Origin: an uncultured Clostridium sp.
Lineage (GTDB): Bacteria; Bacillota; Clostridia; Oscillospirales; CAG-272
Reading direction: 5' to 3'
NCBI GenBank assembly: GCA_964567085.1
Contig: CAZMKU010000001.1
Span: 1 to 53,862, forward strand
Length of the DNA: 53,862 nucleotides
Shown here: positions 35,013 through 53,642 of the stretch, piece after piece
Position numbering within the stretch: the stretch's first letter is position 1
How the letters are laid out: each line of letters opens with the position of its first letter
Notes under the pieces: model-generated
What the model saw: only the letters and a program-made list of their open reading frames with translations
Told to the model about the DNA's origin: nothing
The model's database searches: none
Program-made: the position numbers and the translations under genes

Positions 35013-38000
35013 ATGTTAGAGCTAAAAAACATAAAAAAATCTTATGTTGTTGGTGACTCTACAGTCGAAGCACTTAAAGGCGTCAGCATCGAATTCAGAA
35101 AAAATGAGTTCGTTTCGATACTCGGTCCATCGGGATGCGGCAAAACCACCCTTCTCAATATTATAGGCGGTCTTGACAGATACTCCGACGGAGACCTTAT
35201 CATACGCGGTAAATCCACGAAAACCTTTAAGGATTCCGACTGGGACACCTACAGAAATCACTCGATCGGCTTTGTATTCCAAAGCTACAATCTCATACCT
35301 CACCAGACGGTTCTCGCGAACGTTGAGCTTGCGCTCACGCTCTCGGGCGTATCCAAGGCGGAGCGCCGCCGCAGAGCGACCGAAGCACTTGAAGCCGTAG
35401 GACTTGGCGACCAGCTTAACAAACGCCCCTCGCAGATGTCGGGCGGTCAGATGCAGAGAGTTGCAATCGCTCGAGCTCTTGTAAACGACCCCGATATTTT
35501 GCTCGCAGACGAGCCCACGGGCGCGCTTGACACGGCTACGAGCGTACAGATCATGGAAATTCTCAAGGAGATCTCCAAGGATAAGCTCATTATTATGGTT
35601 ACTCACAACCCCGAGCTTGCCGCAACGTATTCCACGAGAATTATCAAGGTGCTTGACGGCTTGGTGATCAACGACTCCGACCCCTACGTAAGCGAAAAGC
35701 AGGTTGAAGAGGCAGCTCCCGAGCCCGAAAAGAAAACTCACGCTCAAAAGAAGGCCGACAAAAAGGAAAAGGCAAAAACCTCGATGTCCTTCTGGACCGC
35801 TCTCTCCCTTTCCTTCAACAATCTTCGCACCAAAAAGGGTCGAACCATAATGACGTCCTTTGCGGGAAGCATCGGTATTATCGGTATCGCGCTTATCTTG
35901 GCGCTCTCGCAGGGCATCAATGAGTACATTGCAAGCGTTCAAAGAGACACCCTGTCATCCTTCCCCATAAGCATTTATGCGGAGGAAGCTGACATTTCAA
36001 GTATGCTTTCCACGATCATGGACTCGCAATCCACGGAGGACAAGGAAGCGCACGGCACGGATGCGATTTATCCCAATCTCGTTATGTCGGAGCTTGTTCA
36101 GAACATCACGTCCGCCGAGACCAAGAAAAACAATCTCAAGCCCTTCAAGTCCTTCCTTGACGACACGGAAAACAACGGCCTTGAGGGTCACGTATCCGCT
36201 ATTCAATACTCATACAATATTGATCTCAATATGTACGCCATGAACAAATACGGCAACTACAACGACACGAGCCTCGAAAACCTATTTTCGACTATGATGG
36301 GATCGGGAACGAATACGACGGGCACGACGAGCAGTATATCAAGCCTTATGGACACCTCAACGATGTTTGCGGCTTACGACGTGTGGACCGAGCTTCTCCC
36401 GGGCGAAAAGAACGCTGACGGCACGTACTCAACTCTTGTAAACGACGTGGTTAAAAGTCAATATACCGTTGTTGCGGGTGATTGGCCCTCCGCCAAGGAC
36501 GAGGTTATTCTCGTGCTCGACGAATACAACGAGATCACGGATATCACGCTCTTCTCTCTTGGCCTTATCTCCAAGCAGGATATGATCAAGACCGTCACCT
36601 TGGCTATGACGGGTCAGGAAAACACCGACCTCGGACTTTCGGAATCCTATTCCTACGAGGATATCCTGAATATTTCCTTTAAGATGGTTCTCAACTCCGA
36701 CTTCTACAGAAAAGCAGGAGACGGCACGTGGGTTGATATGAGAGAAAACACCGACGCCATCGGCGCGATTCTCAACGACGCTCTCGACGTAAAGGTTGTC
36801 GGCATCGTAAAGCCCGCCGAGAATGCAACCGCCGCTCCTATCGGCGGAACTCTTGCATATACTGCAGCGCTTACGGAATATGCTATCGCAAAGACAAACG
36901 AGTCTGCCATCGCCAAGGAGCTTTTAGCGGCAGAAAATAAAAACCTTGACATCTTCACGGGTCTTCCCTTCGTTGTTGACACCCCTGAGCTTACCGACGA
37001 GGAAAAGGCTGTATACGTAAACAATTACGTAAAGGATATAACAAGCTCCGAGAAGGCGCAGATATACAGAGATATTTACTGCACTCCATCCGACGAATAC
37101 GTTGAAACGATGTACGAGCAGTATAAAAAGGAAATTTACGGTGACGCTTTCAACACGATGTCGTCCGACGAAAAGCGCGACAAGCTTGCTCAGATGATAG
37201 TTAACAACAATCTGCTTCAGGGCATCGACTACGAAACCGCAATGTCCCTGCTTTCAAGCTATAACGACACCGAGCTTGAACTTCGCGCCAAGAAAATGAT
37301 CTCCGAGATAATAATTGAAAATTATTACGAAAGAAAGAGCGCGGAGCTTGATGCTATAATTAACCCCTCGGTTCTCTCAAATAGCCTTCAGGACTCGGCA
37401 AACGCAAGCATGTACGCTCAGCTCAAGGCGAGCATCGAGGCAGGAATCCTCTCGCAGATCCAGCTCGACACGGCCGGTCTTGAAAGTCTGAACGCGATGA
37501 TAAACGCGGGTATTCTTGAAGCAAATCATGCAAAGAAGATAGTTTATATTACAAGCGCCTACTCTACCGAAACAGGACTTGGTATGGACACGTATTTCCC
37601 CATTCTTATGCAGAAATCCGCTGACGAGATCGACGTCCTCTTCGATGCTTTGGTAGACGAGATGACTATGACCCAGTACGCGCAGATCGCACGACTCGAC
37701 CAGGCCTTGTACGACAACATTCTCGCTGAAATGTTCGATACGTATATTGCGGAAAACGCTGAAAACGAGGAGGTTCTCGTAACCATTTACAACGACTACA
37801 TTCCTGACGGAACGAGCAGCAACACCTACGAGGACAATCTGAAGAAGGTCGGCATATGCGACCTCGAGGATCCCGACGCGGTATACATTTACGCGGCAAC
37901 CTTTGAGGACAAGGAATACATCGCAGATGTCATCGCGGATTACAACGATGGCAAGAGTGAGAGTGATCAGGTCTCTTACACCGACTACGTTGCGATGCTT

Positions 38001-38435
38001 ATGTCGTCCATTACGATCATTATCAATGCAATTTCCTACGTTCTTGTCGCATTCGTTTCCATTTCGCTTATAGTTTCTTCGATTATGATAGGAATTATCA
38101 CGAACATCTCGGTTCTCGAGAGAACGAAGGAGATCGGTATTCTCCGAGCTATCGGCGCGTCCAAGCGCGACGTATCGCGCGTATTCAACGCGGAAACTAT
38201 GATAATCGGTCTGGCTGCGGGACTTTTGGGTATCGCTATGACGGTACTTCTCTGCTTCCCGATATCCTGGATCGTTCAGGCTCTCACGGGTATTCCCACG
38301 CTCAGAGCGTACGTTCCTCCGCTCGCAGGAGTAATTCTCGTTCTTATCAGCGTAGGTCTTACGCTTATCGCAGGTCTTATCCCCGCGCGCTCGGCGGCTA
38401 AGAAGGATCCCGTAATTGCTCTCAGAACAGAATAA
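35013..38435 (+). CDS. MacB/FtsX-type ABC transporter, fused ATPase-permease with a very large extracytoplasmic domain
   Basis: The ORF is 1,140 aa. The N-terminal NBD has GPSGCGKTT, MSGGQMQRVAIAR and LLADEPT. TM1 lies at about aa 277-300. The FtsX-type C-terminal TM bundle has LERTKEIGILRAIGASKRDV. Confidence 0.9.
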   Translation: MLELKNIKKSYVVGDSTVEALKGVSIEFRKNEFVSILGPSGCGKTTLLNIIGGLDRYSDGDLIIRGKSTKTFKDSDWDTYRNHSIGFVFQSYNLIPHQTVLANVELALTLSGVSKAERRRRATEALEAVGLGDQLNKRPSQMSGGQMQRVAIARALVNDPDILLADEPTGALDTATSVQIMEILKEISKDKLIIMVTHNPELAATYSTRIIKVLDGLVINDSDPYVSEKQVEEAAPEPEKKTHAQKKADKKEKAKTSMSFWTALSLSFNNLRTKKGRTIMTSFAGSIGIIGIALILALSQGINEYIASVQRDTLSSFPISIYAEEADISSMLSTIMDSQSTEDKEAHGTDAIYPNLVMSELVQNITSAETKKNNLKPFKSFLDDTENNGLEGHVSAIQYSYNIDLNMYAMNKYGNYNDTSLENLFSTMMGSGTNTTGTTSSISSLMDTSTMFAAYDVWTELLPGEKNADGTYSTLVNDVVKSQYTVVAGDWPSAKDEVILVLDEYNEITDITLFSLGLISKQDMIKTVTLAMTGQENTDLGLSESYSYEDILNISFKMVLNSDFYRKAGDGTWVDMRENTDAIGAILNDALDVKVVGIVKPAENATAAPIGGTLAYTAALTEYAIAKTNESAIAKELLAAENKNLDIFTGLPFVVDTPELTDEEKAVYVNNYVKDITSSEKAQIYRDIYCTPSDEYVETMYEQYKKEIYGDAFNTMSSDEKRDKLAQMIVNNNLLQGIDYETAMSLLSSYNDTELELRAKKMISEIIIENYYERKSAELDAIINPSVLSNSLQDSANASMYAQLKASIEAGILSQIQLDTAGLESLNAMINAGILEANHAKKIVYITSAYSTETGLGMDTYFPILMQKSADEIDVLFDALVDEMTMTQYAQIARLDQALYDNILAEMFDTYIAENAENEEVLVTIYNDYIPDGTSSNTYEDNLKKVGICDLEDPDAVYIYAATFEDKEYIADVIADYNDGKSESDQVSYTDYVAMLMSSITIIINAISYVLVAFVSISLIVSSIMIGIITNISVLERTKEIGILRAIGASKRDVSRVFNAETMIIGLAAGLLGIAMTVLLCFPISWIVQALTGIPTLRAYVPPLAGVILVLISVGLTLIAGLIPARSAAKKDPVIALRTE

Positions 38436-38560: not shown

Positions 38561-40114
38561 ATGTCATCACGAACCAGAAATTTCTTTTTAAGCGGACTTG
38601 TGGTAACGGCGACGTCTCTGATCATGCGCGGAGTCAGTGTTGCCTTCAACATTTACGTATCAAGCGTGGCAGGAGCGGAAGCTATGGGATTATTTTCCCT
38701 TATTACGAGCGTGTACGGCTTCTTTATCACTATTGCCTGCTCGTCAATAAACCTGGGCACTACACGTCTTATTTCTGAAGCTCTCGGCGAAGGCAATCAC
38801 AAGCTTTTACGCGACAGTATAAAGATCTGCATTCGCCACTCACTTATCACGGGTCTCATTTCCTCCCTGATCTTGTACTCCCTCTCAGGACTTATCGGCA
38901 CGCATCTTCTGTACGATGAACGCTGCATAATTTCCCTCAAGGCCGTCTCCTTTTCGCTTTTGCCGATCTCGCTGACGTCATGCCTATCGGGATATTTTAC
39001 GGCGGTACGACGAGTCAAGGTCAACGCGGTTTTCCAGATAGTTACGCAAGGCTTTAAAATCTTCACCACCGCCGCTCTGCTCTCGAATTTCTTGCAGTTC
39101 GGCGCGGAATACGCTTGTCTGTGTCTGGTTTTGGGCTCAGTCGTATCCGAGCTCATATCTCTCGGAGTCAATATTATTCTTTATTTTATCGACAAATCAA
39201 AGCATATGCCAAGGCTCGAAGCTCAAAACGGAGAAAAGGCATCCGAGGGAATCGTCAAAAAAATCTGCAAGATCACCCTGCCAGTCACCTTCAGCGCGTG
39301 CATTCGTTCGCTTTTCAACACGCTTCAGCACATTCTCATACCGCGCGGACTCAAGCTTTCGGGAAGCTCGTGGGCAGCGGCGCTTTCATCATACGGAATC
39401 CTTCACAGTATGGTACTCCCGCTCATTCTTTTCCCCTCTGCCTTCATTTATTCCTTCGCAAGTCTGCTTATTCCCGAGGTTGCAGAATGCCGTGTAAGAG
39501 GCGACCATGAGCGTCTGCGTCGCATCACAAGGCGCATAATATCACTCGCGATGTTCTTTGCGATCGGTGTCTCGGGAGTAATGCTTATGCTATCAAACGA
39601 GATCGGTGAGGCGCTTTACAAAAATCAGGAGGCATCGTTCTATATCAGAATTTTAGCGCCGCTCATCCCGATAATGTACATCGACGGCGCGACCGACGCT
39701 ATTCTGAAGGGTATGGGCAAGCAGATATATTCAATGAACGTGAATATCGCCGACGCGGCTCTGTCCTGTGTTCTGGTCTTCTTCTTAGTCCCGCGTCTCG
39801 GACTTTACGGATACATTATCTCAATATACGCCACGGAAACTCTAAACACCACCCTGAGCCTTATCGGAATGTTCACCGCCACCAAAACAAGACCTAAAAT
39901 TTTTCACCAATTACTGTCTCCCATACTGTGTATTACGCTGACGGGCATTATTTCCTCGTTTATTCTGTCAAACATAAACCACCCGTTCTCGCCCGCCGTC
40001 GAGCTTTGTCTCCATATTGCTCTGATAGCTATGATCTACGTTATAGCACTGCTCGTAACGAGGACGATCGGCAAGGAGGAAAACGAGGTCATATATTATT
40101 CGTTCAAAAAATAG
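38561..40114 (+). CDS. MOP-superfamily flippase, SpoVB-like (stage V sporulation protein B / polysaccharide biosynthesis protein family)
   Basis: The ORF is 517 aa with about 14 predicted TM segments. The N-terminus (FLSGLVVTATSLIMRGVSVAFNIYVSSVAGAEAMGLF) resembles SpoVB/MurJ-type proteins. Confidence 0.8.
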   Translation: MSSRTRNFFLSGLVVTATSLIMRGVSVAFNIYVSSVAGAEAMGLFSLITSVYGFFITIACSSINLGTTRLISEALGEGNHKLLRDSIKICIRHSLITGLISSLILYSLSGLIGTHLLYDERCIISLKAVSFSLLPISLTSCLSGYFTAVRRVKVNAVFQIVTQGFKIFTTAALLSNFLQFGAEYACLCLVLGSVVSELISLGVNIILYFIDKSKHMPRLEAQNGEKASEGIVKKICKITLPVTFSACIRSLFNTLQHILIPRGLKLSGSSWAAALSSYGILHSMVLPLILFPSAFIYSFASLLIPEVAECRVRGDHERLRRITRRIISLAMFFAIGVSGVMLMLSNEIGEALYKNQEASFYIRILAPLIPIMYIDGATDAILKGMGKQIYSMNVNIADAALSCVLVFFLVPRLGLYGYIISIYATETLNTTLSLIGMFTATKTRPKIFHQLLSPILCITLTGIISSFILSNINHPFSPAVELCLHIALIAMIYVIALLVTRTIGKEENEVIYYSFKK

Positions 40115-40183
40115 AAGGCTATTGAGGCGGATTATGAGAGGTCGTCGTAGCGCGCGCATAATGAATTGCCTGAAACAATACAA

Positions 40184-40231
40184 AAGCACTTATGACAAAC
40201 GATTTGTTCGTTATCATAAGTGCTTTTTTAT
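40184..40231. terminator. bidirectional terminator between the SpoVB-like gene and the convergent surface-protein operon
   Basis: 12-bp stem AAGCACTTATGA / TCATAAGTGCTT. TTTTATT follows on the plus strand and TTTGTATT on the minus strand. Confidence 0.8.
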
Positions 40232-40266
40232 TATGGCGCTTGCTATGGTAGCAATAGCTTTTAATT

Positions 40267-41538
40267 TTAATGCTTTCTCTTCTTAATAGTAACAGCTCCT
40301 GCGAGAACGATAGAAACCATTATCGCCGCGCCGGCCGAGAGAGTGCTTCCGCAGCCTGACTTGCCCTCAAGCTTGGGAATAACCTGCTGTGCCTCAACCA
40401 TAACGCCGCAAACCGAGCATTTCTTGCCGTCTGTCAAGCCGTCGGCATCCGCTGTTGCTTCAACTCCGCTTACGACCTGAAGCTCACCGTGAGACGCGGG
40501 AATTGTCTGCTGCGCAACGATCCAAGCGTCGCATACAGAGCACTGCTTACCGTCGGTAAGACCGTCGGTCGTGCAAGTAGCGGCGATACCGTTTACGTCA
40601 ACAGAGGTGTGATCAATCATAGGAATTTCGGTCTGTTCAACTATCCAGGCATCACACACCGAGCACTGTTCTCCGTCTGTCAAGCCCGTAGCCGAGCAAG
40701 TAGCCGCGTATCCCGCAACGTCTTCCGCGTGATGCTCGATCATAGGTATCTCAACTCTATCGTACAACACCTCGGAACAAACAGAGCAGATCGTTGCGCC
40801 AAGATATCCTGCCTCGGAGCAGCTTGTCTGCTTGTCATCCTCTCTTACGGGAGTATGACCCGCGGGAGCGTCACCCGTCTTATCAACAGTCGCCAAGCAA
40901 TCCGCGCAAGTATAATGGTTAACACCGTATTCATCGCAGGTAGGTTCAGTCTTGCCCGTAAGCTCGTAATTATGATTTACAAAAACGTTCTGCGCAAGGG
41001 ACTCTGCTATTGCCTGCTTATTTGCGCTCGTCAAGAGCTCCTTGGGGCGTATAGAATTCTCCTGAGCCTTCAGTACATGAATAGTTCCAAGAGTAAATCT
41101 GATCTCCTTGCAGGTCGCTTCATTGACAATGAACTTGATCGTAGCCTTTCCCGTGCCTGTGGTTGTACTGTCATTGGAAGCGGATACGCGATTAAAGGTG
41201 ATCTCACCGTCGGTTACCACCGACACGTTCAAGTCGCCCATCAGCTTATTTTCAACTACCAGCTCACCCTTACCGTTTAAAACGGGAGTGAGCAGCTCGG
41301 GGTCGTATATAATATTTGTCTGAAAAGAATCAAGACCGGGATTTGAGATAATCGAAACAGTCAACTCAATCTCATCGCCAGACTCAACGTATAAAAGTCC
41401 GTCTTTAGAAATAGCAGTGGAAGAAGAGACTCCCACTGCTATTTCTAACTGACCTTCGTCGGCAGAAATATTAATTACTGCCGCCAGTGAGATTAAGAGA
41501 ACCGCAACGAAAACTGTAAGTATTCGTCTGAGCTTCAC
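40267..41538 (-). CDS. membrane-anchored surface protein: signal peptide, cohesin-like domain, five Cys/His mini-modules, C-terminal TM anchor
   Basis: The ORF is 423 aa. A GTG start has a GAGGTG RBS 5 nt upstream. The cohesin-like pattern is GDEIELTVSIISNPGLDSFQTNIIYDPELL. Repeats include ATCTTDGLTDGKQCSVCDAWIV. The tail is AAIMVSIVLAGAVTIKKRKH. Confidence 0.85.
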   Translation of the reverse strand: MKLRRILTVFVAVLLISLAAVINISADEGQLEIAVGVSSSTAISKDGLLYVESGDEIELTVSIISNPGLDSFQTNIIYDPELLTPVLNGKGELVVENKLMGDLNVSVVTDGEITFNRVSASNDSTTTGTGKATIKFIVNEATCKEIRFTLGTIHVLKAQENSIRPKELLTSANKQAIAESLAQNVFVNHNYELTGKTEPTCDEYGVNHYTCADCLATVDKTGDAPAGHTPVREDDKQTSCSEAGYLGATICSVCSEVLYDRVEIPMIEHHAEDVAGYAATCSATGLTDGEQCSVCDAWIVEQTEIPMIDHTSVDVNGIAATCTTDGLTDGKQCSVCDAWIVAQQTIPASHGELQVVSGVEATADADGLTDGKKCSVCGVMVEAQQVIPKLEGKSGCGSTLSAGAAIMVSIVLAGAVTIKKRKH

Positions 41539-41560
41539 TTTATCACCTCGTCATATTTAA

Positions 41561-44500
41561 TTAATTACCGGCAATTGCCTCGTACAATGCGCTATTGAAA
41601 ACGTCATCAACGTTTACCAAGCTCTTAAGGATCTCGTAGTCAACAACTGTGATGCTACCGTCCTTGTCAAGGTCAAGCACAACGTCGTATGTTTCATCAA
41701 GCTTACCGTTGATCATCTGCTTAATAGCGAGAAGCTCTGCGCCGTTAACAGCGCCGTCCTTGATGTAATCACCGAGAACCTTGGATGTGAATGTCAAAGC
41801 TTCTGCATCGAAGGAAGCGAACTTTGTGATGTCAACGATATCAGCATCCTCAACAAGCCATACGTTCTGCTTCGTGCCGAATGTGAAGGAAGCCGCGCCA
41901 ACGTTAGCGTCATCCTTAACCATGAAGTAAACTGTTGCAAGAACTGCGCCTTCTGCATCCTCACCAACTGTATTTACGAATGTGTAAGCTACGTCGGAAT
42001 TCTGAGGAACACCTGCGGAGATGCTAACCACGCCTTCGTTAGAAACAACGGACTCAATAACGAGGTTATCAATACCTGTTGTCATATCAGAGCCGAAGTA
42101 TACAACGTTATTGTTGAACGAGAAGGAGACGTCAAGCTGGCTGAAGTGGAAGTCCTTGTTGCCGTAAACGAGAACGTCAACCGCGATCCATGTGCCGTTA
42201 GCTGTTTCCTTTCTGTCAGACTTTGTAAAGCCTGTGAACTTGCCATCCTCGTCGAATGTGGGATATACTACGCTGTAGTCAAGCTCAAATTCGATACCGC
42301 CTGCCAAGGGTGTGTTAACAACGATCGTTTCATCGCAGTGAGGACACTTGTACGTGTCAACACCGTACGTTGTGGGAGTAGCATCAACGGAGTCAACAAG
42401 GTTGCCCATGATAGCTGCCTTGTGCTCTTCCTCTGTCCAAGGACCTCTTACTACTTCCATAGCAAGCTGAGTGTTACAGTCAACACATGTGTTGATGTGA
42501 ATTTCGCTTGTCTGGCATGTTGCGTTTGTAATCTGCTCGTCGAATCTGTGAACGAAATCAATGTCCTTATCGCATACTACGCAGTGACGGTCGTTGTCAA
42601 GAACGTCAGCCGCGCACTTGTCTGTGTCAAGGAACTTGTCGCCTGCAGCGTTGAAGTGACCTGTTGCGAGAATTACTTCGCCCTCAACGAGTGTGCTCTC
42701 GTCGCCGCATCTGTCACAGATCTTGTCGGAATACTTACCGTCAGTTGTGCACGTTGCGTCAACGCCCGTGCCGTTTTCAACTACGTTGTGTCCGAGAGGA
42801 GCGATATATTCTTCAAGAGCGAACGTATCAGCACCGTTACATGCTGTGCATACGGAGTACTTGAAGCTGGGAGTTGTACATGTAGCGGGCGCCGTCTGGA
42901 GCGTTACTACCGTACCCTCGTGATTTGTTGCGGGAATAAGTGCTGCCGCAGCTGCTTCTGCGATCTCTACCGTTGTAGAGCAGCAAGCCTTATATGTGTA
43001 GCCTGCCGTACCTGCCTCGTGGCACGTAGGAGCTACGGGCTTAACGGTTACTACCGTGCAAGGAACGCAGGAGAGAACCTCCCAAGTACCGTCGGGAGTG
43101 TGACCGAGGTCACAATCTGTGCAGTACTCGTGATATGTCCAACCCTCAATACCCAAGCTTTCGCAAGAGGGAGCCTGAGCGTCAGCTCTCATATTATGAG
43201 AAGCCTTGATATCAGAACCGATCTTTTCGCCTTCGTACGTGGAATCGATATATTCTGTGTAGCTGCAAATGTTACATACGTAACCGCCAACCGTACCTGT
43301 CTGGCAGATGTTGGATACGTGTTCAACGTATGTCCAGTTGTCTGTAGAAACGTTCTTGTCCGTGTATGCTGCAACGTAAACGAGCTCGCCGTCTTCAATC
43401 GCAATATAACCGTGACCCTTTGTCGTATCGTATTCTACTGTGTATGTGTATGTCTTACCGCAGTCTGCGCACTTCTTAGCGTATACGCCTGAAACGTTAC
43501 CGCAGTTAGCCTGTGTTACAACGGATGTGTAACCTGCGCTGAGGTCGTGAGAGGATTCGGATTCGGAATCGATCTCTACGAATGAGCCGTCAACAACGTA
43601 GTCGTCGCTACAGTCGGAGCAGATCATTTCCGTGTAACCTGCGTTTACACAGTTCATTTCGTGAACTACGGGCTGGTAGTTGTGAGCAAGAGCGATCGTG
43701 TCACCAACCTTCTTGTCAGCATATTCAGCTACAAGAACTTCTTCTGTGTTACAGATCAAGCAGATGTAACCACCTACCGTGCCTTCAACACACTTGTTAT
43801 CAACGTGAGCAACGTATGTCCACGTACCGTCAACGGAAGCGTTCTTGTCTTCGCCGTGAGCGGAAACGTAAACGAGCTGGTTGTCAACAACCTCAAGAGT
43901 ACCGTGACCCTTTGTTGTATCGTATGTTACTTCATCAGTAAATGCCTTTGTTTCGCAGTGTTCACACATCTTTACGTAAACGCCTGCGGGAGTGTTACAG
44001 CTTGCAACTGTTGTTGCAGACCAGTAACCAACGAAGGAGTGAGCCTCAGCAAGAGCCGTGTTGATTGCCACTCTGGAGCCTTCTACCTCGTACGTATCCT
44101 GGCAGTCAGCACAAACCATGTTTGTGTAACCCTCGGATGTACATGTCATTACGTGTACGTCTTCCTCGTAAGCGTGAGAAGCAGCGATCTCAGCGCCAAC
44201 CTTCTGGTCTGCGTATGCTTCTTCGATAACTTCTTCTGCCTTACAAATTTCGCAGATGTAACCGCCAACCGTACCTGTCTGGCAGATGTTGGATACGTGT
44301 TCAACGTATGTCCAGTTTTCCGTGGAAACGTTCTTGTCTTCGCCGTGAGCGAAAGTGTAAACGAGCTGGTGGTCGGTAACCTCAATAATACCGTGACCCT
44401 TCGTTATATCGTATTCAACCTCTTCCGTGTAATCTGTCGTGTCACAGTTGTCACACTTCTTTACGTAAACGCCCTTAAGGTTTGCACAGCTTGCAGTCGT

Positions 44501-47257
44501 TTCCGCATACAAGTAAGAGCCTGTGAAGGAGTGACCCGTTGTAGGAATAATTTCCTTTTCAACGTATTCGCATCCATCGTTTACACAAGTCCAGCCGTTA
44601 TAACCGTCAGCCGTACACGTGGGATCTACGTGAACGTCGGTTTCTTCATTGAAGCTATGACCTGTAGCCTTTGTTGTTTCTGTTATTGTATCACCACAGC
44701 CCTCAACGCTACATACGAGAGTTGTGATACCGTCTTCCGTACATGTAGCCGTCGTGCCTGTAGCAACGTGAGTATGAGCAACCGTGGGAACAACCGTGGA
44801 GGACTGCTCACCACCGCATCTTGTGCACTCGTAGTATTCCGTACCCGTTGCGATACAGCTGGGAATATCCTCGAATACCTTTTCTACGTTATGACCAAGC
44901 GCTTCGATAATAACGTCCGCGCCGATCTGTACGCCGCAACCTTCAGTTGTACAATAGTATCTTCCAATACCCGTCGCCGTGCAACTGGGTTCTACGTCAA
45001 CCTTGTATTCACCTGCGCCGTCATTGGAGTGACCCGTTGCAGCAACAGACTGTGTTCTTATCTGCTTATCACATTCCGTACAGTAGATCACAGCTACGCC
45101 CTCGTTTGTACACGTGGGCTCTGTTGTAGTTACGGGGTCATCTTCTGTATGGCCTACAGCCTGGAGGACTTGAGTTTCAATAACGTGAGTACAATCATCG
45201 TATCCGCATACCCACTGAGCAGAGCCGTCTGCTTCACAGGTAGGATCCTGCTTTGTTGTGGGCTCCTCGAGCTTGAGATGCTCGCGCTTTGTTACAGTAA
45301 TCGTAAGAACGTCGGGATACGTTGTATTGAATTCGGATTCTGTCATCCAGATATCCGTGGGAGTACCGTCAAGAGTATATGCAGAGTATTCTGCAGCAGT
45401 CTTACCGTTGGGAATAACCATGATCACTACTTCGCACTCTGTGCATGTAGCAAATGCCCAGCCGTTTGCAAAGCATGTAGCTGCAGAGGACTTAACGATG
45501 GAGAATGTACCGCAGTGCTTCGTGGAGGCGATCTCACCAACCTCGATGTGATCGTCAACAACCGCGTCGCACCACTTACAAATGGACTTGCGGATTTCGG
45601 GAGACATGCAGTTTGCCTCGCTAACGAGAACTGTTTCTTCCTTAGCTACGCAAGGAACAACGGAAAGCACGGAACCGGGCTTCACGTAATCGCAGCCGTC
45701 AACCTCACAGATGCTGTTAGCCTTGTAGCCAACCGTCTGACACGTGGGAGCGATCTCTTCCGTGTTGTACTGGTGACCTGCAGCGGGAATTTCCTCGGGC
45801 TCAACCACAACGATGCCGCACTCCGTACACTTTGTGCCGGACGTATAACCAACCGTCGTACACGTGGGGAACGTAGCCGCCTGAACACCCTTATGATAAC
45901 CCAAAGCGCTGTGAGCCGCTACCAGCTCAGCGTTGGAAATCGTTTCCTGAGGAACCGTTACCGTGTCACAGTCCACACACTTCTGACCTGCTGTAAGACC
46001 GTCAGCCTTACATGTGGGATCAACCGCGGGAAGAGCAGTAATACCCGTGTGAGCCGTCGCCGCCTCAGACTCCGTTACCGTGTTAGAGCAGAACTTACAG
46101 GTCTTAACCGTAACGATCGTCTCTACGCAATCTTCAATCGTAGAAGCCACGCTGGTGATCTCGTGATCGTGACCCTGCGTCGTGTAAACCGTGTGCTCGC
46201 AGCCTGCGTGCTGGCACTCGGAGATCATATTGTTTTCAACTCCGCAAGCATAGTTGAGAAGTCTTACGGGCGCGGACATATTGTGATCCTCTGTTGCATA
46301 TACAACGTGATCACAGCCATCGTTCTGACAAACGGACTTCATATTGTCCTCAACCGTGCAGCCCATACCTTCGATTCTTACGAACTCGGACATATTGTGA
46401 CCCGTAGCATCAACCACTAGAGTTGTGAGGTCACCGATTCTGCCCGCGTTACCCTGAGTATTAGCTTCGCTGAAGTTGTTGCCGCACATCGTACAAACGT
46501 GATATTCCTGCATACCCGTTTCAAGGCAAGTGGGAGCCACCGCGGGAACTACGTATGTAATGTGCTGACGTGTAGCCTTGATAGTTACGTTTTCCTGAAC
46601 CGCCGTACAAGCAATGCCGGACTCGTGAACAGCCACGCACTTGAACGTAACCTGACCTGCAGCGTTACACTTGGGCGCAACGTAAGTATCGTCGAATACA
46701 GGCTGGTAGTTATGATACGTCTCGTGCCACTCAACGCTTTCAACGTGACCGCAAGCGAGACACTCTCTGCTCATATCAAGGTCTGTACACTGATAGTCAG
46801 TCGTTACAGTCCATTCTGTGAACTTATGACCAAGAGCCGGGAGCGCGAACGCCTCAGAGCCGCCCTCAACTACGTTGCCTTCCGTATCGGCAACAGCGTC
46901 ACAAGCCGCAGACTTGCATACCTTGTAAGCAGCGTTACCTGCTGTTGTACATGTAGGTGCCACCGCGGGAACGTCCTCCCATACGTGGTCGCCTGCCTCG
47001 GGGCCAACGATGGAATCGCTGAGAATATGAACCTCATCGCATCCCTCAACCTGGCACTCGAAGTAAGTATAGCCGTTCTTGCCGTTCACATGGTCAGGTG
47101 CAACCACGTGAGGCTCGCCGCTAAAATCGCATACGTGCGAATCAGAAGCTGTATCGTCGCTTCCTGTCGCGAATGCGGGAACGTAAACAACACTAAGAGT
47201 CATCATCAACGCAAGGATCAATGCGAGAGTTCTCTTAGAAAAAATTATACGTTTCAT
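41561..47257 (-). CDS. giant secreted protein: more than 35 Cys/His mini-modules plus a C-terminal cohesin-like domain and dockerin-like repeats
   Basis: The ORF is 1,898 aa with a signal peptide ending ...VPAFA|TG. Recurrent PTCxxxG...CxxC...GH modules fill most of it. The C-terminus has DLDKDGSITVVDYEILKSLV (an EF-hand-like dockerin segment) preceded by GDYIKDGAVNGAELLAIKQMI. Confidence 0.9.
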   Translation of the reverse strand: MKRIIFSKRTLALILALMMTLSVVYVPAFATGSDDTASDSHVCDFSGEPHVVAPDHVNGKNGYTYFECQVEGCDEVHILSDSIVGPEAGDHVWEDVPAVAPTCTTAGNAAYKVCKSAACDAVADTEGNVVEGGSEAFALPALGHKFTEWTVTTDYQCTDLDMSRECLACGHVESVEWHETYHNYQPVFDDTYVAPKCNAAGQVTFKCVAVHESGIACTAVQENVTIKATRQHITYVVPAVAPTCLETGMQEYHVCTMCGNNFSEANTQGNAGRIGDLTTLVVDATGHNMSEFVRIEGMGCTVEDNMKSVCQNDGCDHVVYATEDHNMSAPVRLLNYACGVENNMISECQHAGCEHTVYTTQGHDHEITSVASTIEDCVETIVTVKTCKFCSNTVTESEAATAHTGITALPAVDPTCKADGLTAGQKCVDCDTVTVPQETISNAELVAAHSALGYHKGVQAATFPTCTTVGYTSGTKCTECGIVVVEPEEIPAAGHQYNTEEIAPTCQTVGYKANSICEVDGCDYVKPGSVLSVVPCVAKEETVLVSEANCMSPEIRKSICKWCDAVVDDHIEVGEIASTKHCGTFSIVKSSAATCFANGWAFATCTECEVVIMVIPNGKTAAEYSAYTLDGTPTDIWMTESEFNTTYPDVLTITVTKREHLKLEEPTTKQDPTCEADGSAQWVCGYDDCTHVIETQVLQAVGHTEDDPVTTTEPTCTNEGVAVIYCTECDKQIRTQSVAATGHSNDGAGEYKVDVEPSCTATGIGRYYCTTEGCGVQIGADVIIEALGHNVEKVFEDIPSCIATGTEYYECTRCGGEQSSTVVPTVAHTHVATGTTATCTEDGITTLVCSVEGCGDTITETTKATGHSFNEETDVHVDPTCTADGYNGWTCVNDGCEYVEKEIIPTTGHSFTGSYLYAETTASCANLKGVYVKKCDNCDTTDYTEEVEYDITKGHGIIEVTDHQLVYTFAHGEDKNVSTENWTYVEHVSNICQTGTVGGYICEICKAEEVIEEAYADQKVGAEIAASHAYEEDVHVMTCTSEGYTNMVCADCQDTYEVEGSRVAINTALAEAHSFVGYWSATTVASCNTPAGVYVKMCEHCETKAFTDEVTYDTTKGHGTLEVVDNQLVYVSAHGEDKNASVDGTWTYVAHVDNKCVEGTVGGYICLICNTEEVLVAEYADKKVGDTIALAHNYQPVVHEMNCVNAGYTEMICSDCSDDYVVDGSFVEIDSESESSHDLSAGYTSVVTQANCGNVSGVYAKKCADCGKTYTYTVEYDTTKGHGYIAIEDGELVYVAAYTDKNVSTDNWTYVEHVSNICQTGTVGGYVCNICSYTEYIDSTYEGEKIGSDIKASHNMRADAQAPSCESLGIEGWTYHEYCTDCDLGHTPDGTWEVLSCVPCTVVTVKPVAPTCHEAGTAGYTYKACCSTTVEIAEAAAAALIPATNHEGTVVTLQTAPATCTTPSFKYSVCTACNGADTFALEEYIAPLGHNVVENGTGVDATCTTDGKYSDKICDRCGDESTLVEGEVILATGHFNAAGDKFLDTDKCAADVLDNDRHCVVCDKDIDFVHRFDEQITNATCQTSEIHINTCVDCNTQLAMEVVRGPWTEEEHKAAIMGNLVDSVDATPTTYGVDTYKCPHCDETIVVNTPLAGGIEFELDYSVVYPTFDEDGKFTGFTKSDRKETANGTWIAVDVLVYGNKDFHFSQLDVSFSFNNNVVYFGSDMTTGIDNLVIESVVSNEGVVSISAGVPQNSDVAYTFVNTVGEDAEGAVLATVYFMVKDDANVGAASFTFGTKQNVWLVEDADIVDITKFASFDAEALTFTSKVLGDYIKDGAVNGAELLAIKQMINGKLDETYDVVLDLDKDGSITVVDYEILKSLVNVDDVFNSALYEAIAGN
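43100..44530 (-). repeat. intragenic tandem triplication (unit about 486-492 bp, 163 aa) inside the giant protein gene
   Basis: An identical 60-bp segment (gtaaccgccaaccgtacctgtctggcagatgttggatacgtgttcaacgtatgtccagtt) occurs at 43280-43339 and 44258-44317. A diverged middle copy starts at 43766. The protein repeats share ...YD[IT]TKGHG...NWTYVEHVSNICQTGTVGGY... Confidence 0.85.
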
Positions 47258-47878
47258 CCTTATTTTTCCTCCAAAAATAATTTAGTATTTGAGCAAAAAA
47301 GTACAAATAGAGACAATTTGGACATAGTTACCCATACTTATTTGACTCATTATAACATATAAAAATGCCTTTGTCAATAGATTTGGAAATTTTTAAGCAA
47401 AAATTTTACTATTTTTTTATTAAAAATTTTCATATGCCGACAAAGGTATTCAACGACGCCTCAAGAGGCGAAAAGAGCCGTTTTTCGCCTCTCCGCCGCC
47501 CCGAAATCAGCGAAACCCTTCATTTTTTAAATATATGCGCGCGCACGTAAAGAATTGACGGGAAGCAGAGGTGTTTTTGAACCGTCCTTGCCCTCGCGAG
47601 CAGCAAAATTTACCCCGAAGCAGCGCTCGATCAAGCCCGCGCGCGAGCTTAATGAAATTTAATCATAAATTAAAGGTTTATTTTTAAACCTATTGTTTAT
47701 ACAATTTCCCCGCTTGATTATTTTTTCAAAAGCAGGTATATTCCCAGAAAAAATCACAAATAATAGCAATACAGACCAAAGCTTGTTCCTTGCAAAAACG
47801 CGCGAGGAGCAGGAAATGCTCTACTGACGGGCCGCGATCGCGGCTCTTACAATAAAACGGAAAAAGGATGTTATATAT

Positions 47879-48424
47879 ATGAAAGCTACAGGAATAGTCA
47901 GAAGGATAGACGATCTCGGACGCGTCGTTATCCCCAAGGAGATCAGAAGAACCATGAGGATCCGCGAGGGCGACCCTCTTGAAATTTTTACAGACCGCGA
48001 CGGAGAAGTAATTTTCAAAAAATACTCACCCATCGGCGAGCTCGGAGCGTTTTCAGCTCAATACGCCGAGACTCTGCACAAGACCTGCGACCTGTCGGTC
48101 ATCATCTGCGACCGCGACAGCGTAGTTGCCTCCGCGGGCGTATCCAAAAAGGAATACAATGATCGCTCGCTCTCGGATGAGCTTGATGCGATAGCGGACG
48201 GCAGAAGCCTATACGTCCACCGCACGGGCGACGAGAGGATACCGCCCCTGCGCGACGGCGGCAGCCACCACGTCAGCTGCGCTATGCCCATCATCTGCGA
48301 GGGCGATATCGTGGGCATCGTGGCGTCGCTCACACAGGGCGGAGCCGACAGAACTCCCGAGGCGGTGGAGACAAAGCTCATTCAGACCGCGGCGAGCTTC
48401 CTCGGCAAGCAGATGGAGAGCTAA
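47879..48424 (+). CDS. spoVT: stage V sporulation protein T (AbrB-type N-terminal domain plus GAF-like C-terminal domain)
   Basis: The ORF is 181 aa. MKATGIVRRIDDLGRVVIPKEIRRTMRIREGDPLEIFTDRDGEVIFKKYSP is nearly identical to the B. subtilis SpoVT N-terminus as I remember it. The C-terminus ends ...ETKLIQTAASFLGKQME. Confidence 0.92.
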   Translation: MKATGIVRRIDDLGRVVIPKEIRRTMRIREGDPLEIFTDRDGEVIFKKYSPIGELGAFSAQYAETLHKTCDLSVIICDRDSVVASAGVSKKEYNDRSLSDELDAIADGRSLYVHRTGDERIPPLRDGGSHHVSCAMPIICEGDIVGIVASLTQGGADRTPEAVETKLIQTAASFLGKQMES

Positions 48425-49037: not shown

Positions 49038-52000
49038 TTATGACGCGGTATGATAATACTCCATCATAATAGCTGCGCCGCCATAATAAAGCGTAATGTA
49101 ATCTCCCGTGTAGAATGCCTCACCGGGACGTGTGCCGCTCGCATCAACGTAGCATCCTGTTTTACCGTCCGTATATGCCGTGCTACCCGTGCTGGTCTGG
49201 AATACGGGAGCGCCCGAAGCGGCATAAGCGTCAACATAGGGATTCTGGAAGGTCGTTCCCGCATAGTTCTTGTAATGCGATACCATGCCCGTCGTGTTCG
49301 TTTCGCCCACACGCGTAAAGGATGCGTTAGTATACGTGCCATTCAAGCTTGTTCCGTCGCCGCCCATACTTACCATGATCATATTTACGGCTTCGACGCC
49401 TTGTATCTTATCCGTCGAAATAAATCCGTGGGGGCCATTCTGACCATTCTGACCGCTGATAAGCGCGCTCATAGCCTTTATATTAGCCGCAAGCTGAGTC
49501 TGACCAACCGCTACGAACCAAGCCTCCTGACCCGTTACGTAAGTATAGATCTCACTCTTGGTGTCCGCAATTACTCTTACGCCGTTCGTCTTGTTATAAT
49601 TCTCTTGGCAATTAGGAGCCTGCACGAGCATTACGGGGCCGCCGCACTTAGCAAGAAGCGAATCGGTAATATTTACTACCTGATCGGGAATATAGCTCCA
49701 CGTATCTTGATTTTTGCCGCCCATCGTTGACTGCAGCTCATTCTCGCTCCAAAGCAAGAGGTGTCCCTGCCATGCGTTGTAGAACTTGACCTTATTGAGA
49801 TTAAGCGTTGTTCCCGCAAATTCAAGAACCAAGGAGGTCATGAACGCGTCAACGTTAACGTTGGTCATATTACAGGTAAGCTCACCCGTCTTATAGCAGC
49901 AAAGACCTCTCATATGTCTTTCGCTTGCAGTCTGGTCGTTGGAGTTGGGGTCGTTATCTCTTGTTGCAAGATCGTTAACATTAAATACGTACTCATCAAA
50001 GGGGTTCGAGTCACCCGCAAGTCCGCGAGCGTTAATGTCAGCCTCTGCAGCATATGTAAGCCTTACCTTGATAAGCGAAGCAGACGAAAATTCGTCGTCG
50101 TTGCCCGCAATACCCTTGGGAGTTACGCAAGGAAGGTTATAGGAATAGATGCTGAAGTAGTTACCGTAGATCTCAAACTTCTTTTCATCGGGAGTAAGCT
50201 CGCGGTGGAATATGCCGAGATGATCGTAGAGGCCCTGCTGTGTTACGCCGTTATTATCCTGATATGTATAAATATACTCGGAGGGAATATCGCTTGTCGT
50301 AACGTCAAGATTACAGTGAAGAACGACACTTGCAAGAGTCGTAGGTCTTGTTACACCGTACTTCTTGAGGAACTTATCAACAGCCTGAACCTGATTGATC
50401 GCGCCCTCGTCACCGTAGAAGCCGTTCGTACAATCGCGGGCGGTGTTCGTAATAACATTCAATTCCCAAGCGTTGTAAATATTATAGCCGTCAACTACGG
50501 TTACGGTGTGCGACTTCGTTACGCTCGCCTTGTCCACGTAGCTTGTGCTGTCCGCAGGCCAGATCTCAAGTCTGAACGTCTTGCCGATCGCCTTGTCAGT
50601 GAAATCGTAAGAGTTCATCGCGGAATCAAACGCTACCATTTCGGTAAGAGCGCTGCCCGTAAGCTCGGTCTCGGAGCCGTCGCCGTTTACAAGATAAACC
50701 TTGGACGACGTAGCAATATTTTTACCGTCGACGTCAACGATATTATCGTTTTCGTCAAGCTGAATAACGTTAAGATAGAAGTAGTAGGGGTTATCGTCGC
50801 CTACGCGGTATGCGCTGGTGCTGTCCTTGTAGTTCTTCGCATAGCTTTCTCTTGCCACGAGCTCGTCGGGAAGAAGCGTGCCGAAGATAAGACCCGAAAG
50901 CGTTGCCGCCTCCTTAACCTCGATCTCCATGCTTCCTTCCTTGTTAAGATAGGAAACCACAAGAGTTACCTTCTTCGCGGAGGAGGTATCAACCGTACCA
51001 ACCACGAGATTGGGATTATTTCTGTTTACGTAAGTATACGTGCCGTCCTCGTAAGTAACCTTAACGGAGATGTCGGACGTGTCAAGCTTCTTACCTACGG
51101 TAACGATACTCAGGACGCCGCCAACGATCTCAACCTTCTCAACGCCTCTTACGTGGATATTTACACTTGTATCCAAGGTTACGGCGCCATCCGCGAACAC
51201 GAAGGAAATAGCCTTCCAGCCCGAGGTGGTAGTGTCAACATTTTTAGGAGTTACGGTCAGACGGGCATCCGTGAAGGGGATAAGATAAACGGCGCCGTTA
51301 TCATAATATACCGAAAGCTTCATAGTTGAATAGTCAACCACGTCGCCCTGATTTACCAACGCGGGAACCGTGTTATTGAGCGCGGAGATGCGCACCGCAT
51401 TGATAACCGTAAGATCTACAGAAGCCGAGCAGCCCTCGTAGGTAACCGTAAACTTACCGCTCTGAGCGTTCGTCTGCTCCGTCTTAACGGAAACGCCAAC
51501 AAGCCCGCTCGCCTTCTTCTGTTCCTTATCACCGTTGGAATAAGTGATGTTAAGAGTAAGGTTGGAGGAATCGGCGTCGTATCCGTTACGAAGGTCGGTA
51601 TCAACGCTGCCTCCGAGAATCGCAATATTCGTTACTACACGAACGTAGTACGTTGCCGTTGCTTCAACGCCCATGCAGCTGACCGTAAGGGTCTTGTAGC
51701 CCTCCTCGGACGTGTCGTAAGGAAGAACCTGAACGTCGCTGTCGTGCGCTACGCGAAGCTCTTCATTCGTGCCGTCGGAGTAAGCCACGATAACCTTGAG
51801 CTTCGAAAGGTCGAGCTTGCCGCCTCTGTCGGCTATAAGGCCCGAGACGCCGTTCAAAATAAGGTAGGACGCGGGAAGAACGGAAACCTCTACGGTCGCG
51901 CTCTTCGTTATGTCACCGTCAGTATAAGTAACTGTGAGAGTCGTCGCACCCGCAACGCTCGTGTCAAGCGCGGATACCTCGTAATTTGTGATCTTCTCAG

Positions 52001-53642
52001 CTTCGCCGTTACTGTATATAGCATATACGGCCAGGCTGCCAAGGTCGTACGTACCGTCAATAACCACGTGATCCTTCCAGCTTCTGATCTCGATGCTCTC
52101 AAGCTCGAGAGGCTCTGCGGAAATTACGTAGTTCTGGGAAAGTGTACCGTACTCGCCGCTGTAGGATACAACGAGAGTCTTATTGCCCTCAACGGTTATG
52201 TCAATATCGTCAACGTTAGTCGTGATACCGTCCGTGAGAAGAACCTCTGTTTCAGCGGTGTTGTTATAAACGCCGTAAACCTTCATACCGCTGATATCAA
52301 TAGCTTCGCCCACAGGAACAACCTTTGCAACGCCCTCAACACGAAGGCTTGTGATCTCACAAACCTTTACTGTGTATTCAAGAGTCTTGTTGAGGTAAGT
52401 AATAGTGAGCTTCTGCTCGCCTGCAACGTTACCGTCAATGCTGCCGATAACAAGGTCAGCCGCGTCAAGATGCACTACCGTGCCGCCCGTGAAGGTAGCA
52501 CTTGCGCTGATGCCGCTAAGGTCAAGAGATTCACCCTTGAGAATTTCCGTCTTGATAGCGCCGCCGTGAACGATAACGAGAGACTCAACGGCTACGACCT
52601 CAACCTCAACGGTCGTCTCAAGTCCGCCATATGCTACGGTAAGAGTCTTCTTTCCGACCGTGGACGTATCAAGCGTGCCAAGAGAAAGGTCGGCTGCGCT
52701 CAGGGTCTTTTCCGAGCCGTCGCTATACGAAGCGACCGCGGTGATCGAGGGAGCTGTGTAAGCGACGTCGATCAGAGCCTTTTCGGGATAAGAGCCCTTA
52801 TTCACTTCGACGGAAAGCACGCCGACTACGGTTACCTTGTAATCAATAGTCTCACCCGCAAACGAAATTGTAAGAGTCTTGTCGCCATAGGTCGTCGTAT
52901 CAAGAGCGCCGAGAGTAAGCTCGGACGCGCCGAGATGCTCCTCGTGATCGTCATTATAAACAACGATAACCTGAAGCGCGGACGTATCGAGAGCCTCGCC
53001 TACGCCAACCTTCTTGGATATCGTCTCCGCATTTACGTGCATAGACTTAATGCCGATAACCTCGTATTCCGCGCTTGCTGTAAGCGTGGGATCGTCAGTA
53101 TAGGTTACGGTAAAGGTCTTCTTGCCCTCGCTCGTTACGTCAACGCCCGTATAGGTGTATTCCTCGGAGTCAAGAACGCCGGTATTGCCGTTGCTGTACG
53201 TAGCCTCGATCTGAAGGCTCGACATATTGGGAGCAATACCGAGATAGTAGGATTCGCTGACAGAACCCGCTACTATCTTGATTGCGGTTACGTATGCATT
53301 GGCATCGGGGTCGATTACGGTTACGCTAACCTTTGCGGATTTGCCGCCGTAGGTAACTGTTACCGACTTTGAGCCCGCAGTCGTCGTGTCGAGCGAGCTT
53401 ACGGTTACGCCGTCTGCGATACCAACCTCTTTGGTAGTACCGTCCTCAAAGGTAGCCTTTACCTTGATTCCCGAAAAATCGGGGGTTTCACCCAAATTAA
53501 CCTGGGTGGGGATACTTCCGCTCACAACCTCGATAGCCGTTACGCCTGTCACCACAGGATCGTCGCTGCTGTCGGGACAAGCCGTAAGACATAACAGCGT
53601 TGCGAGCGCGATCATCATAAAAATAATTAATTTTCTTTTCAT
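49038..53642 (-). CDS. large surface lipoprotein: about 11 bacterial Ig-like repeats plus a C-terminal domain of about 600 aa of unknown function
   Basis: The start is set at MKRKLIIFMMIALATLLCLTAC (lipobox LTAC, AAGGAG RBS 6 nt upstream of the ATG at 53642). The track ORF extends to 53708. Repeats of about 80 aa end in ...K[TS]LTVTY......V.V. The C-terminal part is Asn/Thr/Gly-rich. Confidence 0.88.
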   Translation of the reverse strand: MKRKLIIFMMIALATLLCLTACPDSSDDPVVTGVTAIEVVSGSIPTQVNLGETPDFSGIKVKATFEDGTTKEVGIADGVTVSSLDTTTAGSKSVTVTYGGKSAKVSVTVIDPDANAYVTAIKIVAGSVSESYYLGIAPNMSSLQIEATYSNGNTGVLDSEEYTYTGVDVTSEGKKTFTVTYTDDPTLTASAEYEVIGIKSMHVNAETISKKVGVGEALDTSALQVIVVYNDDHEEHLGASELTLGALDTTTYGDKTLTISFAGETIDYKVTVVGVLSVEVNKGSYPEKALIDVAYTAPSITAVASYSDGSEKTLSAADLSLGTLDTSTVGKKTLTVAYGGLETTVEVEVVAVESLVIVHGGAIKTEILKGESLDLSGISASATFTGGTVVHLDAADLVIGSIDGNVAGEQKLTITYLNKTLEYTVKVCEITSLRVEGVAKVVPVGEAIDISGMKVYGVYNNTAETEVLLTDGITTNVDDIDITVEGNKTLVVSYSGEYGTLSQNYVISAEPLELESIEIRSWKDHVVIDGTYDLGSLAVYAIYSNGEAEKITNYEVSALDTSVAGATTLTVTYTDGDITKSATVEVSVLPASYLILNGVSGLIADRGGKLDLSKLKVIVAYSDGTNEELRVAHDSDVQVLPYDTSEEGYKTLTVSCMGVEATATYYVRVVTNIAILGGSVDTDLRNGYDADSSNLTLNITYSNGDKEQKKASGLVGVSVKTEQTNAQSGKFTVTYEGCSASVDLTVINAVRISALNNTVPALVNQGDVVDYSTMKLSVYYDNGAVYLIPFTDARLTVTPKNVDTTTSGWKAISFVFADGAVTLDTSVNIHVRGVEKVEIVGGVLSIVTVGKKLDTSDISVKVTYEDGTYTYVNRNNPNLVVGTVDTSSAKKVTLVVSYLNKEGSMEIEVKEAATLSGLIFGTLLPDELVARESYAKNYKDSTSAYRVGDDNPYYFYLNVIQLDENDNIVDVDGKNIATSSKVYLVNGDGSETELTGSALTEMVAFDSAMNSYDFTDKAIGKTFRLEIWPADSTSYVDKASVTKSHTVTVVDGYNIYNAWELNVITNTARDCTNGFYGDEGAINQVQAVDKFLKKYGVTRPTTLASVVLHCNLDVTTSDIPSEYIYTYQDNNGVTQQGLYDHLGIFHRELTPDEKKFEIYGNYFSIYSYNLPCVTPKGIAGNDDEFSSASLIKVRLTYAAEADINARGLAGDSNPFDEYVFNVNDLATRDNDPNSNDQTASERHMRGLCCYKTGELTCNMTNVNVDAFMTSLVLEFAGTTLNLNKVKFYNAWQGHLLLWSENELQSTMGGKNQDTWSYIPDQVVNITDSLLAKCGGPVMLVQAPNCQENYNKTNGVRVIADTKSEIYTYVTGQEAWFVAVGQTQLAANIKAMSALISGQNGQNGPHGFISTDKIQGVEAVNMIMVSMGGDGTSLNGTYTNASFTRVGETNTTGMVSHYKNYAGTTFQNPYVDAYAASGAPVFQTSTGSTAYTDGKTGCYVDASGTRPGEAFYTGDYITLYYGGAAIMMEYYHTAS

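Follow-up and report, generated by a model that had tools for sequence, protein, structure and literature searches.

A two-gene cassette of an uncultured Clostridium encodes a putative cohesin-dockerin surface fibre built of Cys/His modules

The DNA analyzed here, a stretch of 53,862 nucleotides (nt) from an uncultured Clostridium sp. (contig CAZMKU010000001.1; in the following, the window), carries on its minus strand two adjacent genes for proteins built largely of short modules with one histidine and three cysteines (His-Cys3 modules). The upstream gene encodes a giant protein and the downstream gene a small one. An inspection of the letters without database searches (the sequence-only reading) had proposed that both belong to a surface operon, in which a membrane-anchored cohesin captures the dockerin of a giant fibre protein. 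Both open reading frames (ORFs) are present on the minus strand at the coordinates proposed there. The features of the locus are given below, with residue numbers referring to the respective protein.

47349..47377 (-): sigma-70-type promoter, TTGACA-17-TATAAT with extended TG, ~90 nt upstream of the giant gene
47268..47272 (-): ribosome-binding site (RBS) of the giant gene, GGAGG, 10 nt upstream of the start codon, ATG at 47257, read from the sequence
41561..47257 (-): giant gene, 1,898 amino acids (aa), ATG start; signal peptide, module array, cohesin-fold domain, dockerin
47168..47257 (-): Sec signal peptide of the giant protein, residues 1-30, read from the translation
42311..47167 (-): His-Cys3 module array, residues 31-1649, ~30-35 modules of the type H-x10-14-C-x8-13-C-x2-4-C
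43058..44533 (-): three-module super-repeat of ~164 aa in 3 copies, residues 909-1400, copies ~50% identical
41774..42310 (-): Cys-free beta-sandwich with cohesin fold, 179 aa, residues 1650-1828 (AlphaFold2 and Foldseek)
41615..41773 (-): type-I dockerin, residues 1829-1881 (Pfam Dockerin_1, PF00404, 25.4 bits vs a cutoff of 22.9)
41544..41549 (-): RBS of the small gene, GAGGTG, within the 22-nt gap between the giant stop codon and the GTG start
40267..41538 (-): small gene, 423 aa, GTG start; signal peptide, cohesin, five-module stalk, GCGS motif, transmembrane (TM) helix, KKRKH tail
41068..41454 (-): cohesin domain of the small protein, approximately residues 29-157 (Pfam Cohesin and Foldseek)
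40369..40974 (-): module stalk of the small protein, residues 189-390, four complete modules and one degenerate module
40270..40356 (-): G-C-G-S motif, hydrophobic helix and basic tail of the small protein, residues 395-423, membrane anchor or possible sorting signal
40177..40232 (.): hairpin, probable bidirectional terminator, 22-nt arms 91% complementary, 12-nt loop

The two ORFs, the short gap with its RBS, the perfect promoter and the terminator define a single transcription unit of giant and small gene, whose signals are of the vegetative type. The promoter matches the consensus at 12 of 12 positions and was the sole perfect site in a scan of positions 40000..48000. The gap length, GAGGTG motif and GTG start that had been claimed for the small gene were likewise found in the sequence. 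The AT-rich hairpin, which a GC-based terminator scan had missed, was detected by an inverted-repeat search; it is located ~35 nt beyond the small-gene stop codon, between the convergent small gene and a MurJ-like gene, and is flanked by A-rich/T-rich runs. A profile of the module matched the giant ORF with E = 1e-127 and the small ORF with E = 2e-53. None of the other ORFs of the 54-kb window scored with this profile or with the dockerin segment.

The giant protein contains 105 Cys and 64 His. Its N-terminus, conserved in the orthologues, carries the Sec signal peptide that had been recognized before (MKRIIFSKRTLALILALMMTLSVVYVPAFA followed by T, with cleavage between …VYVPAFA and T). The array behind it comprises ~30-35 modules, and the earlier count of more than 35 turned out to be too high: the regular expression C-x8-13-C-x2-4-C detected 30 regular modules, a strict hidden Markov model (HMM) built from CxxC-type units found 27, and the number of cysteines sets an upper limit of 35 (105 Cys / 3). 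The last cysteine is residue 1641, so that the Cys-free tail measures 257 aa instead of the ~330 aa estimated previously. The window giant has the super-repeat in 3 copies, four relatives have 2 and another four a single full copy, which explains much of the length range of 1,593-1,903 aa among the giants. Tandem Repeats Finder (TRF) revealed no DNA-level tandem repeats in the giant gene, indicating that the duplications are old. A recent slippage or expansion of the array was rejected on this ground. The super-repeat copies are only ~50% identical.

Examination of 4,012 modules from 240 homologues showed that in ~97% of them a His precedes the first Cys by 11-15 residues. The conserved His thus belongs upstream of the Cys triad and not behind it, where the sequence-only reading had placed it. 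That reading had left open whether the repeat is metal-binding or disulfide-stabilized; the odd number of cysteines per module and the position-conserved His favour a metal site and make disulfides less likely. Judged from this ligand pattern, each module probably binds one Zn2+ via one His and three Cys.

Neither Pfam nor NCBIfam holds a model for the module, and members of the module family obtain only sub-cutoff partial matches to unrelated zinc-knuckle families. The sequence-only reading had not recognized the module as a named domain family, but the unit itself has been described, in papers of 2025 on the IgA protease of Thomasclavelia ramosa: the module matches residues 854-980 of this protein (9qa6_A) with E = 1.1e-4 in a phmmer search and E = 7.3e-6 with a profile. 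One study designates the matching region ZBD1/ZBD2 and models it with AlphaFold as three-stranded sheets with Zn sites at the interfaces, one modelled site consisting of 3 Cys and 1 His, and three ZBD subdomains span ~110 A (PMC12237041). A second study names the region CTD2/CTD4, "an uncharacterized periscope domain fold" (PMC12415215), and a third refers to C-terminal beta-sheet domains (PMC12402451). On the basis of AlphaFold models, the first two papers regard the unit as putatively zinc-binding, with a possibly novel "periscope" fold that forms an elongated stalk; the fold is known from these predictions alone, without experimental density or metal data (PMC12237041, PMC12415215). The modules examined here share the defining traits of this region, namely four Cys/His ligands at fixed spacing (~97%) and three short strands per unit in the model.

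When 1.84 billion representative proteins were searched exhaustively with a profile, 34,803 members of the module family emerged at E <= 1e-3, with 17,429 left at E <= 1e-10. Family proteins reach ~7,200 aa and up to 72 matched units, and the array of ~35 units is therefore not extreme. Partner domains of the module in its relatives include LRR, F5/8-C, FN3, SLH, Big, cohesin and dockerin, a pattern that typifies spacer or stalk elements in surface proteins. One relative of 915 aa (P0329) combines an N-terminal Pfam cohesin (42 bits), a module array and a C-terminal dockerin (38 bits). By this architecture, the module is also predicted to act as spacer in cohesin-dockerin proteins of the adaptor type from other organisms.

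The C-terminal 405 aa of the giant protein were modelled by AlphaFold2 with a 7-sequence alignment. The sandwich of residues 1650-1828 was modelled confidently (pLDDT, a predicted local distance difference test score, of 75-92), and about 40 of the top 50 Foldseek matches in the PDB were cohesins, with target template modelling scores (TM-scores) of 0.6-0.72. Direct sequence comparison gave no such signal. Pfam Cohesin did not match the sandwich at E <= 1, a 7-sequence profile found no cohesin among PDB sequences, and hhalign established no link to the cohesin family of the small protein (probability 6.6%). A weak transitive link is provided by the giant of one distant cassette (L010), which aligns to residues 1707-1891 with E = 6e-12 and reaches 21.0 bits with Pfam Cohesin immediately ahead of a 39-bit dockerin. 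Ruminococcal cohesins visible only by structure have already been documented (PMC13463774). Of the cohesin-type sandwich proposed earlier, the fold was thus recovered and the direct sequence-profile similarity was not; residues 1650-1828 are, according to the model, a cohesin-fold domain whose family membership by sequence is not established.

The dockerin that follows had also been proposed, and in this case Pfam Dockerin_1 scored above its cutoff. Its two segments were compared with a loop of the consensus D-x-[DN]-x-D-G-x-x-[DNT]-x-x-D with a helix behind it; the first is degenerate, and the second, DLDKDGSITVVD, represents a canonical Ca2+ loop. PDB sequence searches matched dockerins and an X-dockerin, and orthologues of the giant carry precomputed PF00404 matches. 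A homology search with the 259-aa Cys-free tail by itself, in which subjects seem to be limited to about 1.75 times the query length, gave no match. Among orthologous giants the dockerin is 61-81% identical, the cohesin-fold domain 54-67% and the array 40-53%.

The small protein begins with a signal peptide (cleavage between …VINISA and DE), followed by the cohesin. Pfam Cohesin (PF00963) matched residues 52-147 with 23.7 bits vs a cutoff of 24.1 and thus just failed to reach the threshold. Most orthologues of the small protein carry precomputed PF00963 matches, and the small proteins of distant cassettes scored 43.9, 28.9 and 40.9 bits. Foldseek matches of the model were mostly cohesins, such as 6kgc_A (root-mean-square deviation 2.4 A over 120 columns, target TM-score 0.60), in agreement with the nine-stranded jelly-roll beta-sandwich that characterizes this family. 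The near-cutoff score, the above-cutoff relatives and the fold together support the predicted cohesin. A short helical linker connects it to the stalk, for which AlphaFold2 returned a pLDDT of 80-89 and three short strands per module. The HMM detected all five modules that had been predicted, the degenerate one included.

The C-terminal TM helix and KKRKH tail described for the small protein are present in its sequence. At the start of the helix, all eight orthologues of the small protein carry the motif G-C-[GKS]-[SGT]-[AT], and a basic tail follows. This layout of motif, helix and basic tail resembles a C-terminal sorting signal. The GCGS-type motif is absent from more distant relatives, and other module proteins end in PKTG-type signals. 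None of the NCBIfam CTERM/sortase models scored above its cutoff on this C-terminus; sub-cutoff matches, covering the helix and tail only, were obtained for Rumino_NPXTG (15.3 vs 23.5) and LPXTG_anchor (13.1 vs 15.9). We rejected the small protein as a sortase substrate, because it has no LPXTG/NPXTG motif and GCGS occupies that position.

The co-occurrence of the two genes, on which the proposed partnership depends, was observed in all 10 other loci examined. Including the window, the pair is adjacent in 11 loci and four genomic contexts. Six of the other loci are orthologous and four belong to distant relatives. All seven loci of the lineage show the identical order SpoVT-like gene, giant, small, MATE/MurJ-like flippase gene and fused ABC-FtsX gene. 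Within this block the pair is much more diverged (43-56% identity) than the flanking genes (74-85%). Only two GTDB species representatives carry the lineage cassette, both of them uncultured metagenome-assembled genomes of Eubacteriales. Homologues with a named source belong to Oscillospiraceae, Ruminococcaceae and Acutalibacteraceae. The distant cassettes encode cohesin-module-TM proteins 28-36% identical to the small protein, each with a giant-type gene 17-35 nt upstream. These giants measure 1,512-1,574 aa and carry modules between a signal peptide and two dockerin-type segments paired at the C-terminus. The four distant loci represent three unrelated neighbourhoods, with aromatic amino-acid genes and barnase/barstar, with sfsA and thrS, and with PFK and DUF4838. 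As the pair stays together across unrelated contexts, comparison of the loci provides strong evidence that the two genes form a functional unit.

Downstream of one distant cassette, at a distance of ~6 kb, lie genes of the DsbD_TM and thioredoxin/redoxin types (locus L008, 17131..18536); they were seen at this single locus. Systems of the DsbD/thioredoxin type export reducing power and could thereby keep Cys outside the cytoplasm reduced and able to bind metal.

Taking these data together we favour, with some caution, the view that the cassette is an operon complete in itself and expressed in vegetative growth, and that it encodes a cohesin-dockerin surface fibre of a non-cellulosomal kind. 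The small protein would be exported by the Sec pathway and retained in the membrane by its C-terminal helix, N-terminus out and basic tail inside, as a socket whose single cohesin is held off the membrane by the five-module stalk. After export, the giant protein would form an elongated and presumably rigid rod of ~30-35 small three-stranded beta modules, each stapled by one Zn2+ through its one His and three Cys, and ending in the cohesin-fold domain and a calcium-dependent type-I dockerin. This dockerin would plug into the cohesin of the small protein, so that the rod would be tethered by its C-terminus with the N-terminus projecting away from the cell. Scaled from the published ~110 A per three units (PMC12237041), the rod may be ~100 nm or more in length and the stalk of the small protein ~15-20 nm. 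The giant's own cohesin-fold domain could offer a second docking site, either for another dockerin protein or for another rod. By analogy to periscope-type stalk proteins, the fibre most likely acts as a spacer, an adhesive or a coat.

Several observations weigh against this picture. The best single Foldseek match to the sandwich of the giant is a CLIPPER adhesin domain, and the domain is without direct sequence-profile similarity to cohesins. The first dockerin segment, DYIKDGAVNGAE, is degenerate in the window copy, with Ile at loop position 3; the Asn/Asp of this position is lost in most orthologues too, while two keep the canonical DVNNDG and DANDDG. The dockerin of the giant was modelled at low confidence (pLDDT 33-44), as were the last modules of the modelled C-terminal region with the 7-sequence alignment used. 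Zn binding by the module fold is a prediction, for the IgA protease as well. The rod bears no recognizable head domain. Moreover, the giant carries a cohesin-fold domain of its own, and this is possibly the true partner of its dockerin.

The latter point belongs to a different pairing, which we consider unlikely. Here the dockerin would bind either the cohesin-fold domain of the giant itself, as an intramolecular closed clasp or in intermolecular chains and bundles, or a cohesin encoded elsewhere. The cohesin of the small protein would capture other dockerin proteins, and adjacency of the genes would reflect co-regulation in a larger network. Such a pairing would fit the position of the cohesin-fold domain directly beside the dockerin, both being the most conserved parts of the giant, and the lack of sequence relationship between the two cohesin-type domains, which suggests different specificities. 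Ruminococcal genomes can moreover encode dozens of dockerin proteins (PMC13463774). However, direct partnership is the simplest explanation for a giant and a small gene that are adjacent in 11 loci and four contexts, the giant alone has no visible means of cell attachment, and no further dockerin or module gene exists in the 54-kb window.

It would surprise us more if the modules were disulfide-stabilized or redox-active and the array a cystine-knotted extracellular fibre. The giant is extracytoplasmic and very rich in Cys, and DsbD-type and thioredoxin-type genes occur near one distant cassette, which speaks for such a fibre. In contrast, a tetrahedral metal site is marked by just such a set as the modules possess, three Cys, an odd number, with a His at fixed distance in ~97% of cases. 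The hosts seem to be anaerobic Clostridia of the gut type, and the homologous region of the IgA protease was modelled with Cys/His sites and no disulfides (PMC12237041). We give hardly any credence to a spore-surface appendage, a reading suggested by the two genes on either side of the cassette, spoVT and one for a SpoVB/YabM-like flippase. In 7 of 7 lineage loci these neighbours are indeed a SpoVT homologue and a MATE/MurJ-like flippase gene, but spoVT beside a yabM-type flippase gene is a general arrangement in Firmicutes, as on the B. subtilis map, and the cassette looks like an insertion into this conserved block. In addition, a Sec signal peptide is present in each of the two proteins and a membrane anchor in the small one, neither of which is known from coat and exosporium proteins made by the mother cell. 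The promoter corresponds perfectly to the vegetative sigma-70 consensus, and the distant cassettes are situated in non-sporulation contexts.

The preferred reading, a fibre mounted by a cohesin-dockerin link, can be compared with three known systems. Cellulosome and amylosome anchoring, as in R. flavefaciens ScaE and the R. bromii amylosome (PMC13463774, PMC4611034), likewise involves a surface-anchored single-cohesin protein, a secreted partner ending in a two-segment Ca-type dockerin, clustered genes, and a cohesin that sequence models detect poorly and structure prediction clearly. TM-anchored single-cohesin scaffoldins are already known in Ruminococcus, from R. difficilis and related species (PMC13463774). 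The partner resembles an adaptor scaffoldin in that it bears cohesin and dockerin together. In contrast to these systems, the cassette is a minimal set of two genes without glycoside hydrolase, carbohydrate-binding module (CBM) or other enzyme, its cargo is a ~1,600-residue rod of Cys/His modules, and its linkers are His-Cys3 units instead of X, FN3 or Thr/Pro-rich segments. Pfam and NCBIfam scans detected no catalytic, carbohydrate-active enzyme (CAZyme) or CBM module in either protein and nothing beyond cohesin and dockerin, the NCBIfam scan giving no match at all; the earlier verdict that this is not a cellulosome therefore holds. We rejected a cellulosome or amylosome, as the pair lacks an enzyme or CBM and the window, the part of the genome that was searched, has no other dockerin gene.

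With ZBD1/ZBD2 (CTD2/CTD4) of the T. ramosa IgA protease (9QA6), the giant shares the module by sequence profile, with motifs such as AATCTTAGNSAYYTCDGC, as well as small sheets of three strands, Cys/His sites located between consecutive units, and the proposed function of a stalk or "periscope" at a Gram-positive surface (PMC12237041, PMC12415215). The IgA protease possesses 5 units, mostly with 2 His and 2 Cys, as a spacer under a catalytic head, and a sortase-type signal. The giant of the cassette, in contrast, has ~30-35 units, mostly with 1 His and 3 Cys, which constitute nearly the whole protein, and its attachment would proceed via cohesin and dockerin. Periscope proteins such as SasG/Aap with G5-E repeats and Sgo_0707 with SHIRT repeats (PMC8201768, PMC9704523) likewise form long rods from small beta domains in tandem at a Gram-positive-type surface. 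Their length varies among relatives with repeat copy number, as it does here among species-level relatives with 1, 2 or 3 super-repeats. They differ in that their DNA repeats are near-identical, their N-terminal head is functional and their anchoring is of the LPXTG type (PMC8201768, PMC9704523), whereas the repeats of the cassette are diverged (~50%) without a DNA tandem repeat, no head is recognizable and anchoring is predicted to be non-covalent.

The two genes that enclose the cassette are a SpoVT homologue (47879..48424, +) and a MATE/MurJ-like flippase gene of the YabM/SpoVB type (38561..40114, +). Next to the latter, 35013..38435 (+) encodes a 1,140-aa protein in which an ABC ATPase (residues 21-169) is fused to a C-terminal FtsX permease (residues 1013-1133), with ~800 unannotated residues in between. 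This fusion gene adjoins the cassette in all 7 lineage loci and is missing there in the distant relatives. On the other side, 49038..53708 (-) codes for a 1,556-aa protein with a signal/lipoprotein-like N-terminus, at least six Big_3 domains and a C-terminal portion of several hundred residues without a Pfam family. It was rejected as a component of the system, as it is not conserved beside the cassette in related loci. Other envelope-related genes of the window encode a DUF5711 protein (19427..20698, -) and a 1,031-aa YfhO-family membrane protein (25911..29006, +).

Neither the cohesin-dockerin logic nor the module is without precedent. What appears to be undescribed is the minimal cassette of rod, plug and socket, and likewise the size of the unannotated module family. 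To our knowledge, research on cohesin-dockerin systems has dealt almost exclusively with the assembly of enzymes; in this cassette the plug and socket apparently serve solely to mount a structural fibre. No Pfam/NCBIfam model and no experimental structure exist for the building block, although protein clusters of gut-type Clostridia contain it by the tens of thousands, and an HMM of the module would improve the annotation of giant "hypothetical" surface proteins in gut metagenomes. Short, modular and free of other domains, the cassette would be a clean experimental system, useful for solving the fold, for learning whether extracellular Cys/His sites do bind zinc in an anaerobe and for measuring stiffness and length per module, and it could define a new cohesin-dockerin specificity pair for protein engineering.

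It is possible, in our judgement somewhat short of probable, that zinc-stapled extracellular rod domains form a very large class in Clostridia which databases leave unannotated, and whose repeat is the His-Cys3 unit (at least 34,803 representative proteins, with up to 72 units per array). The cassette may then be the minimal "pure" form of this class, a non-covalent, pilus-like appendage of rod, cohesin-dockerin plug and membrane socket. If this is true, assembly of the fibre would depend on extracellular Zn2+, with ~30-35 ions per chain, and on Ca2+, and the surface architecture of these bacteria would be tied to the availability of metals in the gut.

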